Part shown: one piece after another, positions 5,538 to 48,917 of the stretch
Position numbering within the stretch: position 1 is the stretch's first letter
Layout of the letters: every line of letters begins with the position of its first letter
Source: Verrucomicrobiia bacterium
GTDB taxonomy: Bacteria; Patescibacteriota; Saccharimonadia; Saccharimonadales; JAGQNK01
Direction of reading: 5' to 3'
NCBI GenBank assembly: GCA_035489575.1
Contig: DATHJY010000006.1
Coordinates: forward strand, 1-52,766
Length of the DNA: 52,766 bases
Notes under the pieces: model-generated
Database searches by the model: none
Seen by the model: only the letters and a program-made list of their open reading frames with translations
Told to the model about the DNA's origin: nothing
Made by a program: the position numbers and the translations under genes

Positions 5538-5637
5538 TAATTTGTTATCTCTTGAGGTAGCCTGTGTGATTGCGCACAGAAATTGACAACAAGGAAGAAG
5601 CAAGCAACAGGCTAGACACCAAAAAAGGAGGGGTCTA

Positions 5638-5922
5638 GTGGAGCTTACGTGGAAGCAGACTATCGCGCTTGTATCGCTCGCCGGCATTGCCTATTACTGT
5701 CGGAGCCAGATACCGGGCATCGCCGCGTTTTGTTACGACTGGCGATGGGCGTTCGTGTTCGGTTTGGCCGGTTCGGTGATTGCACTGACTCTGGGTTTCA
5801 TTGTGTTGCTCATGGTCATGCCACCGGAAGGAGAACATACCAATACCGGACCTCCGAAAGGGTACGTCTACCGACCCCCGCCTGACGAAGACGAAGGCGA
5901 AGACATCTCCTGGATGCTCTGA
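5638..5922 (+). CDS. Small hypothetical membrane protein (94 aa) with moderately elevated GC
   Basis: The GTG start is preceded by AGGAGG. It has two to three hydrophobic segments and an acidic C-terminus. A structured 3' UTR and a hammerhead ribozyme follow on the same strand. Confidence 0.6.
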   Translation: MELTWKQTIALVSLAGIAYYCRSQIPGIAAFCYDWRWAFVFGLAGSVIALTLGFIVLLMVMPPEGEHTNTGPPKGYVYRPPPDEDEGEDISWML

Positions 5923-5947
5923 CACGAATGCGGGTATCAGAATCTGT

Positions 5948-6087
5948 TCAAGGTCTCTGTTGTTCTAAAATGCTCCTCCGGGTGCCCGTTCGCCCTGATC
6001 CACCAATCGCACCGCAGGTGTGCTTGGCGAACCAGTCCGAATTATCACTTGAAGTGGTACATTTTGCCAACAAAGACGAGACCTTGA
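5948..6087 (+). ncRNA. Stem-closed structured 3' UTR element (S/E motif, copy 1)
   Basis: A closing helix forms between tcaaggtctc (5948-5957) and gagaccttga (6078-6087). The internal 32-mer at 6027-6058 matches 34590-34621 at 25 of 32 positions by hand count. The blocks tccggGtg and cgccctg are shared. A variable hairpin (gcacc/gtgtgc here, cgtaac/gttacg in copy 2) occupies the same position. Confidence 0.5.
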
Positions 6088-6122
6088 GCAGGTTCTCTGC
6101 CCCCTTATTCTTCCTTGTCGTC

Positions 6123-7800: not shown

Positions 7801-8091
7801 AAAGAATACTCCTCGCAACTTACGCACCAGCCAGCCTGCCACCCGGCACAGCCGGCTGCCCCGCTGGCTTCTTGGCCTCCAGCACATTTTTCCCCTGTGG
7901 TACTCCCTCAACGTACTAAAGTACGTCTCGGTCCGTTCCTCGGGAAGAAAATGCACTGGAGGCTCAAGTGCGTAAGCTGTGCCTACGTTAGTTTTTTAAA
8001 AGTGTGCTCTTTCGGTTCCCCTCAAGGTTGCCCACGTATATGGAGAGTATTTTAAATAAAGTTGTATAAAAAGCAAGTATATTTTATAGAG

Positions 8092-14407: not shown

Positions 14408-15037
14408 ATGACAGCAGAACTGGCAGAGACAGGCAAAAATTTTATTACACTCGCTCAGGCAAAGCGTTCACGCTCTATTGGGGCGTACCGTGACGAGCTT
14501 GAAGCACACGGACGATTAACGGATGTGGTAGCTGAGTCTGTTGATAAGGCCGTCGCCGTTAGGGCGGGGAATAGACTTCTATGGTATCTGGCGGGACCAC
14601 TGACAGGCATGGATGAGCCAACTAAGAGACGATACGTGGACCTGAGCGAGCTTATCGCCATTCACGATTCGCCTGTCAGTATGTTTGGCTACGCACCGCA
14701 CGCACATGGTACAGACCCGATAAAGCATCCTGACGTGACACCGGCCGAAGTCAGGGACATAGACTACTTATGGTCTACGGTTGTGGCCGATGGGCATTTT
14801 AACTGCCTTCATCCAATGGGACACGGCAACGCTATAGAGGAGGGCTGGGCAGAAGAGGCTGGTATACCCAGTGTCTACTTGGTGCCACAAGACATGCAGC
14901 TATCACGGCTCGTGCTAGGTATGCGCAATGTAGTTGGGACTGTCAGATATGACTCGTTTGAAGCTGATGGCCTTGCCCAAGTCGATACCCTTCTAGAGGG
15001 GATAAGTGCGCAGTACACACAGGCATTTGATCAGTAA
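14408..15037 (+). CDS. Nucleoside 2-deoxyribosyltransferase-like protein
   Basis: The motifs YLAGPLTG and GNAIEEGWAEEAGIPSVYLV resemble the Rossmann-like nucleoside 2-deoxyribosyltransferase superfamily. The assignment is tentative. Confidence 0.4.
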   Translation: MTAELAETGKNFITLAQAKRSRSIGAYRDELEAHGRLTDVVAESVDKAVAVRAGNRLLWYLAGPLTGMDEPTKRRYVDLSELIAIHDSPVSMFGYAPHAHGTDPIKHPDVTPAEVRDIDYLWSTVVADGHFNCLHPMGHGNAIEEGWAEEAGIPSVYLVPQDMQLSRLVLGMRNVVGTVRYDSFEADGLAQVDTLLEGISAQYTQAFDQ

Positions 15038-15214
15038 GCTATAGACAAAAACATTTTTTTATGATCTAATTACTGAAGTTAAAGTTCTGCTTTGACGCCC
15101 TTTGACAGAGCTTACTTATCTCTAGTTGTGAACTAGTTGCAAGGGTGTAACCCTGTGCCGATCAATAGTCGGTAGAGGGTTACACCCGTTCATCAACCAC
15201 AGGAGAGTCTCAGA

Positions 15215-16102
15215 GTGTCTTTTCTCGATCACTTCCTCGAGCCCGTCTACGACGACTCGACACCGCGTCGGCTGAATCCCCTTGGCATCCTCGTTCTGTG
15301 CTCGCTGGTCTTCGCTGTCATCACCGCCCTGGCGTTCGCCTTCGGCGTGCATGATGATCACGAAGCTGCCAGCAATCCCCCCGTCAGCACCACCACGGCT
15401 CCGGCCGTCGACCCCACCACGTCCACCACCGCTCCGACCACCACCTTTACCACCATCGTCACCGACGATGGTGGAGACGCCGAGGTCGACTACTGGCTGA
15501 TGAGGGGTACTGAGCTGCAGTCCATGACGGACGAGGACTGTCTGGCGCAGGACCATTTCGCCTATCTCGGCCTGACCGAGACTGACATGCCCCGTTCCTA
15601 CCCGGACGACTCGTTCTTCCACTTCGACTGTGGCACAGGCTACTGGGGCTGGTATTTCCAAGGCGCCGCCGGTGACACGTGGCAGGCCAGCCGGATCCTT
15701 CTGAGCGATCTGCCGCTGTGCGACGATCTGCCCGCTGGCGAACTGTGTCACGCGATGTTGTCGCTCGACAAGATCGGTGTGCCAACCAACCTGCATCACC
15801 CGTACTTCGAGGATGCCCTCACCCTGAGCGAGATCCACGCCGGTGACACCGTCTGCCTGCGAACCATGAGCCGCACCCCCGGCAAGCCCTCGCTGGGAGA
15901 GACCCTGACCATCGAGAGCGTCGGCACCAGTGCCTACGTTCCCCACGACTCCGACAAGGTCACGGCCTACCCGGCCTACCGCCCGAAGACGGACGACGGC
16001 GAGGACACCCTCTCCTCCTACCGTTCGGCGGAAGACGACGGCCTGGCCCCGTTCTCCAACGGTTTGTGGTCCACCGACTACGTGACGGCAGGCGACTGCT
16101 GA
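15215..16102 (+). CDS. GC-rich hypothetical membrane-anchored or secreted protein
   Basis: The GTG start is preceded by AGGAG. It has an N-terminal TM segment (LGILVLCSLVFAVITALAFAF), a Thr/Pro-rich linker and a Cys- and acid-rich globular region. GC3 is very high. Confidence 0.7.
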   Translation: MSFLDHFLEPVYDDSTPRRLNPLGILVLCSLVFAVITALAFAFGVHDDHEAASNPPVSTTTAPAVDPTTSTTAPTTTFTTIVTDDGGDAEVDYWLMRGTELQSMTDEDCLAQDHFAYLGLTETDMPRSYPDDSFFHFDCGTGYWGWYFQGAAGDTWQASRILLSDLPLCDDLPAGELCHAMLSLDKIGVPTNLHHPYFEDALTLSEIHAGDTVCLRTMSRTPGKPSLGETLTIESVGTSAYVPHDSDKVTAYPAYRPKTDDGEDTLSSYRSAEDDGLAPFSNGLWSTDYVTAGDC

Positions 16103-16167
16103 TCTCCTAACCCCTTCACAACTTCATACGAGAGACTGAACGTTTACCGTTCGATGTAAGCTCTGTC

Positions 16168-16210
16168 TCTCACACAAGCCCATACCGCCAAACTATGGGC
16201 TTGTGTGAGA
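16168..16210 (+). terminator. Strong hairpin downstream of the 15215..16102 gene
   Basis: A 16-bp perfect stem forms between tctcacacaagcccat (16168-16183) and atgggcttgtgtgaga (16195-16210). No U-tract follows, so terminator function is inferred only. Confidence 0.45.
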
Positions 16211-16245
16211 ACTAAGGACAGATCAAAAATGGTATAGTGTTTTTT

Positions 16246-16713
16246 ATGAACAAAAACACTCTTTTTCAATATTGCCCCAAATTTGTATTATTCTCTGAAG
16301 ATAAGACAAAGGTCTTGTTTGCCAAGCGCTTTGGCGAGCAAGATTATGACGGCGTTTATTCGCTTATTGGCGGCAAAACCGAAATCACTGATGAGTCACT
16401 GTTGGCCGGGCTCAAGCGCGAAAAAGAAGAAGAGATTGGCGAGTCTGCCAAGGTTAGAATCTGCTGGAAGATGAGCTGCTACCAAATACTATTCCGCAAA
16501 AAAGATGGCAACAGTATGATTATTCCTCATCACGTGGCGCTGTATGATGGTGGCGAGATTCGGCTCAATCCCGAGGAGTACGCTGACTACAAATGGATAC
16601 CGATTGATGAGTTCCCGGCATTCGAACCCAAGATTGCAAATAATGTTGACGTTCTGCAGGCCGCACAGCGTTTGCTGCCACTTTTGACCGACGACGACTT
16701 TGACGAAGTTTAA
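16246..16713 (+). CDS. NUDIX hydrolase
   Basis: The Nudix box GGKTEITDESLLAGLKREKEEEIG is present. It is a close paralog of 51235..51702. Confidence 0.8.
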   Translation: MNKNTLFQYCPKFVLFSEDKTKVLFAKRFGEQDYDGVYSLIGGKTEITDESLLAGLKREKEEEIGESAKVRICWKMSCYQILFRKKDGNSMIIPHHVALYDGGEIRLNPEEYADYKWIPIDEFPAFEPKIANNVDVLQAAQRLLPLLTDDDFDEV

Positions 16714-17411: not shown

Positions 17412-17455
17412 ATATTTCAGGGTCGAACCCTGTACAGGGTTCGACCCTGAAATAT
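17412..17455. repeat. REP-like perfect palindrome (21-bp arms) upstream of the Y1 transposase
   Basis: The sequence is atatttcagggtcgaaccctg-ta-cagggttcgaccctgaaatat. The core tttcagggttcgaccctgaaa recurs at 18090-18120. Confidence 0.8.
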
Positions 17456-17466
17456 CGGTGTATAAT

Positions 17467-18081
17467 ATGCTTATGCCAAGTAGGAACCGAGTGAAAGTAT
17501 ACGGCCCTCAGCACGTCTATCACGTATATAATAGGGGCAACAACAAAGAACTAGTCTTTCGAGTGTCAGAGGATTACGCGGTTTTCCTTAATATCTTAAA
17601 AAGATATCTCGGAGAAAAGCAAGAGAATGATTCGCTAGGGAGATTGTATAAGAACTTTAGTAGCGAGATTGAGCTAGTGGCCTTTTGCTTGATGCCAAAT
17701 CACTACCATTTACTCCTGTATCAAGAGACCGCAGATGGCATTACAAAACTAATGAAAAGTATTACTGCCTCTTACACGGGCTATTTCAATAAAAAATATG
17801 AACATGTGGGCCATGTTTTTCAGGGGACGTTCAAGGCTTCGCTGATTGATCAAGAGAGCTACTGGCAGCATATTTCACGCTATATTCACTTAAATCCCCG
17901 GCAGTGGCGAAACTGGAGGTGGTCAAGCTTGCCTTATTATCTTGGTGAAAAACAATCTGATTGGGTGAAGCCGGAGCGTTTGTTAGGGGTATTTGAGGGG
18001 CATGATTACTTGAGTTTTGTATCTGACCATGAAGACCACAAGGCTATGCTCGATGAATTAAAGACCATGTTGGCCAACTAG
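17467..18081 (+). CDS. IS200/RAYT-type Y1 (HUH) transposase-like protein
   Basis: The motifs HVYNRGNN, FCLMPNHYHLLL (HUH) and YIHLNP are typical of the Y1_Tnp / REP-associated tyrosine transposase family. Alternative starts lie at 17458 (GTG) and 17473. Confidence 0.75.
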   Translation: MLMPSRNRVKVYGPQHVYHVYNRGNNKELVFRVSEDYAVFLNILKRYLGEKQENDSLGRLYKNFSSEIELVAFCLMPNHYHLLLYQETADGITKLMKSITASYTGYFNKKYEHVGHVFQGTFKASLIDQESYWQHISRYIHLNPRQWRNWRWSSLPYYLGEKQSDWVKPERLLGVFEGHDYLSFVSDHEDHKAMLDELKTMLAN

Positions 18082-18089
18082 AGGTCGTT

Positions 18090-18120
18090 ACCTATTTCAG
18101 GGTTCGACCCTGAAATAGGT
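18090..18120. repeat. REP-like palindrome downstream of the Y1 transposase
   Basis: The sequence acctatttcagggttcgaccctgaaataggt is a perfect palindrome. It shares its core with 17412-17455. Confidence 0.8.
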
Positions 18121-20813: not shown

Positions 20814-20982
20814 GGGCTCGAACTCGGGATATGGAACTGTCATAAGTAGGTTAGAGAAAGCAGAAGCAAGTTATTTGAAGTGGTGTGGGTGGTGGTAGCC
20901 TGATGGCGAACAGTTCCGAATAGTGTCGGTTTGTTAGCGCCACCAGGACTACCCTCCTTGGTTGTCGATCCCTTCGCTGCCT

Positions 20983-21219
20983 TCAGCCGTCGTGTGTGTG
21001 GGGTGAGTCGGAGTAGATGATGGCACCACAGCTGCACTCGAAGGGGATCATGGCATCGGACCACGGCACGAACAGGTTGGCGTTTCCGCTCAGGTCATCG
21101 CCAGTGGCGTCGGCGATGGCGAAGAGCGTGTGATCGTTGGAGAGGCCGAGATCTGTCTCGAGATCTGCGACTTTGAGGAGCCGGTCCACTTTCCTGGACT
21201 GCGCTGAGCTGGTGGACAT
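20983..21219 (-). CDS. GC-rich small hypothetical protein (78 aa)
   Basis: The sequence is MSTSSAQSRKVDRLLKVADLETDLGLSNDHTLFAIADATGDDLSGNANLFVPWSDAMIPFECSCGAIIYSDSPHTHDG. It has its own promoter and lies within a GC-rich patch. Coding status rests on ORF length and codon bias only. Confidence 0.5.
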   Translation of the reverse strand: MSTSSAQSRKVDRLLKVADLETDLGLSNDHTLFAIADATGDDLSGNANLFVPWSDAMIPFECSCGAIIYSDSPHTHDG

Positions 21220-21312
21220 CTGTCCTAGCCTTTCGGTGCTGGTCGTGTGGCTTTCAGCTTGCTTCTGCTTTGAGGTGTCTCGAGGACAGTGTTGTCTCTA
21301 CAAAACCTTTAT

Positions 21313-31185: not shown

Positions 31186-31415
31186 CCACACCAAACAGGC
31201 CACAATCTTCGCACTTGGATGCTCAGTGCCTTTTCTCTGCGAGAACCGGACCGACAGGTCGGCACCCAAAACGTGGCAAAGCCACGTTATTGGCTTACCG
31301 TTCACGAATTAGCCGTGCCAATAGCACGGTGAAGGGAGGATCACAGCAGAAAAAGGTGCTGAGCGCCAAGAACACCGGCGGGCTTCTGGCCTTGCCAGAA
31401 GGCAGGCCGGTGTGG
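31186..31415 (+). ncRNA. Candidate structured RNA of about 230 nt, class unknown
   Basis: A closing helix forms between ccacacc (31186-31192) and ggtgtgg (31409-31415). A long imperfect duplex pairs cttggatgctcagtgcc with ggtgctgagcgccaag. Three local hairpins are present (cgtggc/gccacg, ccgtgc/gcacgg, cttctggc/gccagaag). The overlapping ORF 31164..31433 looks non-coding. The strand is assumed. Confidence 0.3.
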
Positions 31416-48156: not shown

Positions 48157-48281
48157 TGGCATGAAGTAAGGTATGGTTTGATGATCTAAAAGATCAAAAG
48201 ATCAAAAGATGAGGTCCCTCCTCATCACCCTACTTCATGGCCTAGTCGTGGCTAGGACTTTTCCCAAGGTCTTGTCCCGGA

Positions 48282-48845
48282 TCAGTTGGTGCTTGCGTCG
48301 GTCGACTCGTCGCCAGGAACCAGGCGCAGAGGGGTAACAGGTGCCAGCGGACGCGGCTGTTGGGCCGGCGACGGTGCGGACACGCGCCCGGGGAACGAGC
48401 CATCGCGGAGCGCGAACAACGTGTTCAGGACAAAGCCGACGTAGAAGCCGACCGCTGTCAGCGCGATGCGCGTGGTGTCAGGGGTGTCGATGCCCACGTA
48501 GTGGTAGTCCTGCTGGAACGACCAGATGAACATCTCCGTTATGCCGATACCGAAGGCCAAGCCGAACAGAGAGAGCCAGATCGAGTTGCGCCAATGGGAG
48601 AGGGAATCCCCCAAGGAGTGCTTGCCCTCTGCGAGGGTGACCAAGCTCGTGAGTCCACCGGCCAGAATGGCTGCAGCCGTGGTGCAAGCCACCAGCCCAG
48701 CCGGACTCTTGATGGTTCCGAGGCCGAAGGGCCAGATGATCACCATGACCATCACGGGGGCGATCAAGACCTCTGCGGTCTTGCGCATGTTGCGCCAGCC
48801 GCTCGGTGTGATCACAACATCCAGGGCGTGCCGGATGTTTGACAT
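48282..48845 (-). CDS. GC-rich hypothetical integral membrane protein, about 4 TM helices; distant paralog of 660..1154
   Basis: ORF 48282..48992 was trimmed to the ATG at 48843-48845 (MSNIRHALDVV...). It has four hydrophobic segments and a Pro-rich disordered C-terminus. GC3 is high. Confidence 0.7.
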   Translation of the reverse strand: MSNIRHALDVVITPSGWRNMRKTAEVLIAPVMVMVIIWPFGLGTIKSPAGLVACTTAAAILAGGLTSLVTLAEGKHSLGDSLSHWRNSIWLSLFGLAFGIGITEMFIWSFQQDYHYVGIDTPDTTRIALTAVGFYVGFVLNTLFALRDGSFPGRVSAPSPAQQPRPLAPVTPLRLVPGDESTDASTN

Positions 48846-48917
48846 GTTTAGCGTCCTTTCACGGGACAACTTGGGAACTTCCTGGTTTTTGGTCGAGTGG
48901 GAAGTACACTTACCAAT

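Follow-up and report, generated by a model that had tools for sequence, protein, structure and literature searches.

Inverted repeats bracketing a GC-rich Saccharimonadales gene most likely form a conserved helix between the 5' and 3' untranslated regions of its mRNA

The window analyzed here is the entire contig DATHJY010000006.1 (52,766 nucleotides), one of the 14 contigs of a 1.52 Mb genome (assembly GCA_035489575.1, GC content 0.515) that is placed in Candidatus Saccharimonadales, the TM7/Patescibacteria lineage. It contains a GC-rich open reading frame (ORF, 15215-16102), referred to below as the cassette gene, which encodes a 295-aa protein and is bracketed by a pair of 12-nt inverted repeats. 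Our analysis indicates that the region 15060-16210 is probably a self-contained monocistronic unit, the mRNA of which is closed by a clamp, that is, by pairing of its 5' untranslated region (UTR) with its 3'UTR, within a stereotyped frame. The inverted repeats are most likely two strands of one conserved helix, formed in RNA, and the comparison of orthologous units shows that these arms are held complementary by selection. The evidence consists of the complementarity itself, the compensatory conservation of the arms, the excess of such repeats on genes with high GC content at third codon positions (GC3), the place of the arms in the predicted transcript, and the thermodynamic plausibility of the helix. 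Coordinates and sequences of all elements are given in Table 1.

Complementarity and covariation of the arms

Both inverted repeats that the first-pass annotation had described around the gene are exact: the two arms of the clamp are complementary in 12/12 positions, and AGTTGTGAA (15124-15132) and TTCACAACT (16115-16123), nested within the clamp pair, are complementary in 9/9. The 12-mer forming the 5' arm (15104-15115) has no second occurrence genome-wide. The 12-bp hairpin of the 5'UTR (15143-15154/15176-15187), claimed in the same annotation, is exact as well, being the core of a longer imperfect stem (15138-15161/15169-15192). The hairpin at 16168-16210 is also present as claimed there, but its stem is perfect over 17 bp, not 16 bp.

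Orthologues of the 295-aa protein have been identified in 8 of 401 genomes of the order, in one soil metagenome contig and in one Logan contig; scans of genome contigs and of metagenome contigs for further orthologues yielded one locus each. Eight units were compared: the one described here (G000), those of genomes G021, G242, G127, G185 and G111, the metagenome unit L012, and the unit of the sister contig L018. The identity of the orthologous proteins to the window protein is 21-60%, and in every orthologue the bracketing repeat occupies the homologous place. The 5' arm opens with a conserved (UU)GACAG, and the 3' arm closes with CUGUC, directly abutting a conserved hairpin, CUCACCA...UGGUGAG.

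Covariation was counted over seven sequences, as L018, with arms identical to those of G000, was found later and left out. All 84 cells of the clamp (12 pairs in seven sequences, 100%) are standard pairs; six of the 12 pairs are altered on both sides, and 13 cells are compensatory. Sliding of the partner strand by 1-3 columns decreases the pairing to 25-51%, in an alignment of few sequences anchored by hand on the invariant outer parts, for which shuffle counts should not be read as probabilities; the pattern as such is unambiguous.

The neighbouring structures show the same behaviour. The stem of the 5' hairpin is retained in G021 despite changes on both sides, and the terminal hairpin has 18 consensus pairs over eight orthologues, of which 11 show compensatory changes. 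A second helix connecting the two UTRs inside the clamp (UCUCU/AGAGA and 8-9 bp more) is found in G000, L018 and L012 with equal spacing and differing sequence; in particular, L012 has a different, yet complementary, sequence pair TAGATTGT/ACAATCTA. The 3'UTR block CACAACU..ACGAGAGACYGAACG is kept in five of the eight orthologues. Moreover, the region of the Shine-Dalgarno (SD) sequence is predicted to pair with CUCCU/CCUC, or with a longer stretch past the stop codon, in G000, L018, G021 and G127, this pairing being absent in the other four. G021 (contig L002) has an additional feature of this kind: 13 nt over the SD and start codon (1455-1467, AGGGAGTAGACAT) are 92% complementary to a 3'UTR segment (2273-2285) that immediately precedes the 3' clamp arm, and translation signals would be occluded there much more strongly than in G000.

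Gene neighbours of the orthologous units vary between families, including HIT, KhpA/B and a cytidylyltransferase. Since the arms accompany the gene among these different neighbours, they are part of its unit, not of a target site. The sister species has the unit in the same position, flanked by uvrA and a NUDIX gene, with 88% identity of the NUDIX protein, 60% identity of the cassette protein and 72% identity of the cassette coding sequence (CDS) at the DNA level.

One further observation concerns the 3'UTR of the sister unit. Here the small hairpin is separated from the second helix by an insertion of ~170 nt (L018 3926-4100), very stably structured (z = -8.5) and giving no Rfam match. The genome under study has diverged copies of it (70-82% identity) in at least six places, two of them in the window, at 7816-7950 (minus strand) and 31198-31371 (plus strand); the insertion is a dispersed structured repeat able to land in the clamped frame and leave this frame intact.

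Frequency of bracketing repeats and their place in the predicted transcript

The check proposed by the first-pass annotation, a statistical comparison of cassette genes with backbone genes, was done as a genome survey. It relied on crude ORF calls, was restricted to genes flanked on each side by 30 nt or more of intergenic DNA, and recorded the longest exact flank-to-flank inverted repeat; as a control, the left flank of one gene was cross-paired with the right flank of another. With GC-rich genes defined by GC content of at least 0.585, an exact bracketing repeat of at least 11 nt was found in 18 of 104 GC-rich genes (0.5 expected) and in three of 555 backbone genes (1.9 expected), one of the latter three being the Y1 transposase-like gene flanked by hairpins; Fisher's test gave an odds ratio of 38.5 (p = 9e-13). 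Thus bracketing is enriched on GC-rich genes, and backbone genes do not show it at a similar frequency. The result was the same for GC islands defined by a hidden Markov model (15 of 101 with a repeat of at least 11 nt, 1.2 expected), and among single-ORF islands 18 of 65 reach a Watson-Crick helix score of at least 24 (2.2 expected). Duplex energies computed by RNAduplex on 190-nt flanks were swamped by non-specific long duplexes.

The arms are sharply bounded and placed at the GC transition. Their sequences vary between units, many starting with (T)TGACA or including AAGCAGAC. The 5' arms usually follow a U-rich run, often similar to ACCUUUAU, and the 3' arm often follows a C-run. Two neighbouring GC-rich units of this genome (C7:15995-16627 and C7:16762-17963) have a common clamp arm, ACAAGCAGACAGGA, and near-identical 3' flanks with different ORFs, so that they are either paralogous frames or a case of ORF exchange within a frame.

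Three further units of the window had been listed as analogous, and all three are present. Unit (a) pairs in 14 of 15 positions (not 13) with one A·C; it is preceded by a promoter, TTGCTA..TATAAAT, and no orthologue of it was detected in the 401 genomes. In unit (b) the pairing is 14/14 as described, and 41 nt separate the end of its TTGACA promoter from the 5' arm downstream of it. The orthologue of this unit from G250 (61% amino acid identity) has the arms GAAAGCAAGTGCAA/TTGCACTTGCTTTC, compared with AAAGCAGAAGCAAG/CTTGCTTCTGCTTT in the window, which amounts to three compensatory double changes. Unit (c) has the 6+8 bp helix with a bulge, as listed, the bulge being of 3 nt. In the sister contig its 5' arm is kept, with the pairing reduced to CCCAA/UUGGG and GUUG/CAAC (5+4 bp), and no usable orthologue was found in the 401 genomes. 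The helix of unit (c) is not significant alone, and this unit is the weakest of the four. The earlier statement that these repeats do not represent termini of a single transposon family agrees with our data, as the sequences are unique, no target-site duplication was found, and the conservation extends beyond the arms.

The high GC content of the cassette gene (flanks 0.41-0.45) extends to its orthologues. Four of them, with identity down to 40%, have GC3 of 0.82-0.83 and flanks of 43% GC, so that the gene does not look like a recent import. Its CDS is more folded than synonymous-codon shuffles (z = -3.05). As a general explanation, GC-richness as a reflection of extra mRNA folding was rejected, since the class of GC-rich CDSs is not folded beyond such shuffles (mean z of -1.16 compared with -0.98 for the backbone, p = 0.81).

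The product is most likely a fast-evolving surface protein. It consists of an N-terminal membrane anchor, a Thr/Pro-rich linker and a C-terminal domain of ~200 aa with four conserved Cys, modelled with a predicted local distance difference test score (pLDDT) of ~85; in some orthologues the anchor is replaced by lipoprotein-type signal peptides. These anchors and signals bear out the earlier label of a secreted protein in the sense of secreted or surface-exposed. The search against Pfam gave no family, comparison of the predicted structure with folds in PDB gave no match, and homologues were seen in Saccharimonadales genomes and metagenomes only. A search among 5.8 billion proteins yielded just three relatives, all without a name or a Pfam domain.

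The promoters of orthologous units are canonical sigma-70 sites (TTGACx-17-TAtAAT), located 30-50 nt upstream of the 5' arm, and therefore the left arm would be transcribed. Among the 26 clamped units of this genome, 15-17 have a canonical promoter 30-60 nt upstream of the 5' arm; a strong match on the sense side, with the -10 box ending 31-62 nt before the arm, was counted in 15. Three units appeared to have a promoter on the opposite side, and in two of them the strand of the ORF had been misassigned; an ORF flipped relative to the promoter was seen in 0 of 26 units. A scan of the unit described here revealed no promoter-like site between the 5' arm and the ORF. Hence, as far as can be judged from the sequence, there is no sign of a transcription start site (TSS) downstream of the left repeat, which would have left this repeat outside the transcript. 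The TTGACA with which the 5' arm starts was considered as a -35 box of the unit and rejected, since no -10 box is at the right spacing and the promoters are 30-60 nt further upstream.

In this cassette and its orthologues the wobble pairs are of the RNA type. The sole non-Watson-Crick cells of the clamp are U·G on the sense strand (G242 and L012); the terminal hairpin has ~10 G·U cells on the sense strand vs 3 A·C; and in the 5' hairpin of the sister contig two sense-strand G·U pairs stand in place of A-U pairs of G000.

Predicted folding agrees with this. When three orthologous mRNAs (1.0-1.1 kb) were folded at full length, the minimum free energy (MFE) structure included the clamp, with pair probability of ~1.0. 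For the 26 units, the 45 nt before the 5' arm are strongly structured (mean -10.6 kcal/mol vs -5.4 in shuffled sequences, p = 3e-8), and the 55 nt after the 3' arm are also more structured than shuffles (p = 1e-4).

Probable RNA helix and alternative explanations

Taken together, the promoters being upstream of the arms with none inside, the wobble pairs, the nested helices, the folds and the structured sequences flanking the arms favour pairing in the sense-strand RNA. The proposal of the first-pass annotation that the repeats pair the 5' and 3' UTRs is supported by the compensatory changes in orthologues, the upstream promoters and the presence of the clamp in MFE folds.

Several observations weigh against this conclusion. 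Covariation of the two arms would also be expected from any DNA process that needs identical inverted sites. The first unpaired juxtapositions at the inner helix ends of the 26 units (e.g. 15116/16155 and 20871/21257) are A·C in 48% and G·U in 24%, with 21% and 7%, respectively, in the cross-unit control, so that they have no strand asymmetry, A·C being even commoner than G·U. In this genome, a simple promoter scan detected no canonical promoter for the unit, and the terminal hairpin lacks a U-tract. As already mentioned, the predicted second helix and the SD/anti-SD pairing are found in only some orthologues. Finally, a clear clamp is limited to 17-30% of GC-rich genes, and this reading gives no reason for the tie between the clamp and high GC3.

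It is unlikely that the arms serve as an RNase III processing stem or insulator, i.e. an interrupted duplex of ~26 bp, at which the cassette mRNA would be cut out of read-through transcripts, so that its ends do not depend on the context. In this case the helix would still be formed in RNA, but for processing and not for protection. The enzyme is encoded in this genome, a 5'-3' duplex of 12 + 5 + 9 bp is predicted in G000, L018 and L012, and read-through into the cassette is possible, because the upstream gene 14408-15037 is on the same strand; moreover, the 5'-3' pairing in icaR makes an RNase III substrate (PMC3868564). Still, the duplex is broken by a three-way junction, and excision is not obviously needed, since each unit appears to own a promoter. 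Typical RNase III substrates are ~20 bp, while G185 and G111 have just the clamp of 12-14 bp. The flanks of 16S and 23S rRNAs form processing stems, which are RNase III substrates enclosing a functional RNA, and there, too, complementary segments ~1 kb or more apart bring the ends together; however, the rRNA stems are longer, enclose a non-coding RNA and are removed by cleavage, whereas here a 12-bp helix encloses an ORF.

A recombination structure was offered in the first-pass annotation as an alternative role of the repeats, and no support for it was found. In its most specific form, the repeats would be crossover sites of a DNA inversion switch, with the ORF flipped relative to an outside promoter, resulting in phase variation of the surface protein. 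Such a switch is very unlikely, though it would fit the fast-evolving surface product, the location of the promoter outside and of the ORF inside the repeats, and the exact, sharply bounded arms, which would also co-evolve if they were recombination sites. No flipped ORF was observed in the 26 units or in the eight orthologous copies of the cassette. The arms are short (11-15 bp) and specific for each unit, and thus a single recombinase could not recognise all of them. No recombinase gene is adjacent, the neighbours being UvrA, NUDIX and VTT, and the sister contig, in spite of its identical arms, lacks the Y1 transposase-like gene that is found 1.3 kb away here. The arm mismatch in G242 and L012 is a sense-strand U·G, the adjoining hairpins contain sense-strand G·U of the RNA type, and the additional nested helices would have no role in an inversion site. 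In known invertons (Hin/Gin/fimS-type) a segment is enclosed by short inverted repeats, and its expression depends on how it is oriented with respect to the promoter. The units described here resemble them in having short inverted repeats around a segment next to a promoter, but differ in the lack of a recombinase, of a common site consensus and of flipped copies, and in the RNA-type wobble within the arms.

The arms could also be terminal inverted repeats of a mobile cassette, or halves of a palindromic target split by insertion, as might be suggested by the GC-rich ORF set in AT-rich flanks, the patchy distribution (8 of 401 genomes of the order) and the gene neighbourhoods varying across families. 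This reading is highly improbable and largely refuted. The arms move with the gene into other neighbourhoods and hence are not target sequence, the target site is not duplicated, the genome has the 12-mer only once, and the conserved unit reaches past both arms, to the promoter and leader on one side and the 3' hairpin on the other. Moreover, the unit of the sister species is at the same site with 72% identity of the CDS DNA, and thus is old and vertically inherited there. The GC3 of 0.82-0.83 in orthologues only 40% identical, and the lack of homologues outside Saccharimonadales-type genomes in the search of 5.8 billion proteins, also speak against a mobile cassette.

Gene cassettes of integrons deserve a separate comparison. 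Their recombination site, attC, is one compact 3' site with the cores R''(RYYYAAC) and R'(GTTRRRY), and the cassettes form arrays beside an integrase. Similar features are single ORFs of foreign-looking composition and a structured, sequence-variable, covarying palindromic element. However, integron cassettes are promoter-poor and arrayed, whereas here the units are dispersed, have their own promoters, and their arms bracket the ORF; the R''/R' core motifs are absent from the arms of this cassette. The element is not an attC site.

Three particular candidates were rejected. Insertion into a pre-existing palindrome does not agree with the arms going with the gene beside other neighbours in other genomes. 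The direct repeat TTTTTTATGA (15055/16240), considered as a target-site duplication, does not adjoin the arms and has no equivalent in other units. Ends of the IS200/IS605 type (TTAC ... hairpin ... TCAA) are contradicted by the unrelated sequences of the two hairpins and by the lack of the nearby Y1 gene in the sister contig.

Chance complementarity has a negligible probability, as a 12-mer match between flanks of ~150 nt is expected at ~1e-3 per gene, and so in a few genes per genome, while the observed excess is 36-fold, restricted to GC-rich genes, and the pairing is conserved with covariation.

Layout of the unit and its possible role

The order of elements in the unit is shown in Table 1. 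In the sister contig L018, the position homologous to the candidate -10 region TATGATCTAAT is occupied by TATGATATAAT. A scan for intrinsic terminators did not call the terminal hairpin, which is followed by AACUAAGG with no U-tract. At the gathering score Rfam gave no match in the window. No hammerhead or other Rfam family was found in the sister unit, nor, with E-values up to 10, in the stretch 15000-16300.

Table 1. Elements of the cassette unit, analogous units of the window, and clamp arms of the orthologous units
Feature	Position	Strand	Description
Candidate -10 region	15060..15069	+	TATGATCTAAT; putative, weak in this genome
Leader hairpin	15078..15096	+	Between the presumed TSS and the 5' arm; predicted in full-mRNA MFE fold and UTR co-fold
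5' arm of the clamp	15104..15115	+	GACAGAGCTTAC; RNA GACAGAGCUUAC; 12/12 complementary to 16156-16167
Second helix, 5' strand	15119..15132	+	UCUCU + AGUUGUGAA; pairs with 16131-16135 and 16115-16123 in folds
Large 5'UTR hairpin	15136..15197	+	Between the clamp and the SD; core 15143-15154/15176-15187
Shine-Dalgarno sequence	15201..15205	+	AGGAG; predicted partner CUCCU directly after the stop codon (UTR co-fold)
Cassette ORF	15215..16102	+	295 aa; GC 0.637 (63.7%), GC3 0.82
Anti-SD-like CUCCU	16104..16108	+	One base past the stop codon; predicted partner of the SD
Second helix, 3' strand	16115..16135	+	UUCACAACU ... AGAGA; inside the conserved 3'UTR block
Small 3'UTR hairpin	16137..16153	+	UGAACG-uuuac-CGUUCG; at the junction beside the clamp; predicted in folds; kept in L018 and L012
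3' arm of the clamp	16156..16167	+	GTAAGCTCTGTC; RNA GUAAGCUCUGUC; 12/12 complementary to 15104-15115
Terminal hairpin	16168..16210	+	17 bp, perfect (16168-16184/16194-16210), 9-nt loop; abuts the 3' arm; no U-tract
Unit (a)	5585..6122	+	Arms 5585-5599/6108-6122, 14/15 with one A·C; ORF 5638-5922, 94-aa membrane protein
Unit (b)	20857..21271	-	Arms 20857-20870/21258-21271, 14/14; ORF 20983-21219, 78 aa
Unit (c)	48263..48875	-	6+8 bp helix with a 3-nt bulge (48263-48279/48862-48875); ORF 48282-48845, 187 aa
Arms in G000, G021, L018			5' GACAGAGCTTAC; 3' GTAAGCTCTGTC
Arms in G242, L012			5' GACAGAGCTTAT; 3' GTAAGCTCTGTC; terminal pair U·G on the sense strand
Arms in G127			5' GACAGAGCATAC; 3' GTATGCTCTGTC
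Arms in G185			5' GACAGCGTGAGA; 3' TCTCACGCTGTC
Arms in G111			5' GACAGCGTACGAA; 3' TTCGTACGCTGTC

The surroundings of the unit differ from those in the sister contig. The segment 13573-15037, between uvrA and the cassette, contains a minus-strand gene with helix-turn-helix and NUDIX domains as well as a 209-aa ORF that matches no Pfam family. The sister contig lacks both genes, and its uvrA directly precedes the cassette promoter. In the stretch 16232-16248, the start codon (ATG 16246) of the NUDIX gene downstream of the cassette is ~9 nt past a TATAGT box, which suggests a leaderless mRNA, or one with a very short leader, directly after the terminal hairpin of the cassette. Further downstream, an ORF with the Y1_Tnp domain (IS200-like, 17458-18081, GC 0.42) forms a ~700-nt unit (17413-18117), being flanked by a perfect palindromic hairpin TATTTCAGGGTCGAACCCTG/ ...CAGGGTTCGACCCTGAAATA (17413-17454) and by a further copy of the arm (18098-18117). 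This unit is missing from the sister contig, in which the VTT gene directly precedes the L25 gene, and it resembles an IS200/IS605- or RAYT-like element that was inserted recently.

In the proposed mechanism of the clamped mRNA, the helix between 15104-15115 and 16156-16167 would tie the start of the message to its end. The clamp would be located at a junction of several structures, with the leader hairpin on its 5' side and the 17-bp terminal hairpin abutting its 3' arm; inward of it there would be the second 5'-3' helix, the large 5'UTR hairpin and, possibly, the SD-CUCCU pairing. The clamp and the two terminal hairpins may bury both mRNA ends and the nearby cleavage sites, making the message long-lived, and the stop-proximal anti-SD, where present, may couple stability or re-initiation to ongoing translation. 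A common frame of this kind would serve an entire class of accessory genes in Saccharimonadales that evolve fast and have high GC3. By analogy with known systems, the function of the clamp would be in mRNA stability or in coupling to translation; genes for RNase Y, RNase III and two paralogues of RNase J are present in the genome, a decay system of the Bacillus type.

The closest parallels are two individually studied mRNAs. In hbs of Bacillus subtilis a 14-bp interaction of the 5'UTR with the 3'UTR modulates cleavage by RNase Y in the leader (Braun, Durand & Condon 2017, PMC5737220). The unit described here is similar in the 5'/3'UTR pairing and the structured 5'UTR, and RNase Y and RNase J are encoded here too. 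However, hbs is a single housekeeping gene, while here dozens of accessory genes with high GC3 in each genome have a stereotyped frame, with arms specific for each unit, the terminal hairpin abutting the 3' arm, and extra predicted 5'-3' helices. In icaR of Staphylococcus aureus a C-rich motif of the 3'UTR pairs with the SD region, blocking initiation and creating an RNase III substrate (Ruiz de los Mozos et al. 2013, PMC3868564). The pairing of the SD region with CUCCU/CCUC after the stop codon, predicted in four of the eight orthologous units, would resemble it; unlike in icaR, the covarying element here is the clamp, which is upstream of the SD and does not include it.

A bolder, quite tentative extension, which we consider doubtful, is that Saccharimonadales run a portable expression scaffold for fast-evolving host-interface genes, with a closed mRNA, exchanged as a framed unit and with GC3 functionally tied to it. 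In this scaffold, a promoter and a leader hairpin would precede the 5' clamp arm; a GC3-rich ORF would come next, then the 3' clamp arm and, as the last element, a terminal hairpin. In such a scaffold the stop-proximal anti-SD would make the end-protected closure responsive to terminating ribosomes. It would correspond, in bacteria, to the closed-loop mRNA of eukaryotes, and the framed unit, not the naked gene, would be gained, lost and exchanged.

Pairing of the 5' and 3' UTRs in bacterial mRNAs is known from few individually studied genes, such as hbs and icaR. What is new here is the long-range 5'/3'UTR pairing as a class-wide stereotyped frame, and a search of 8.4 million papers and preprints found no published description of such a frame. 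In these genomes the pairing appears to be a systematic, evolutionarily maintained design that marks GC3-rich, fast-evolving accessory genes of an ultra-small epibiont, surface proteins being the products of many of these genes. Given the GC3 of ~0.82 retained over deep divergence, such genes may be native and kept GC-rich for a reason, rather than "stolen" from high-GC hosts. If the clamp controls the life-time of mRNA or translation coupling, it would constitute a lineage-wide post-transcriptional layer of regulation in Patescibacteria, which have few classical regulators. If this is true, a GC3-rich ORF with covarying bracketing arms would also be a signature of host-interaction genes in uncultured genomes.

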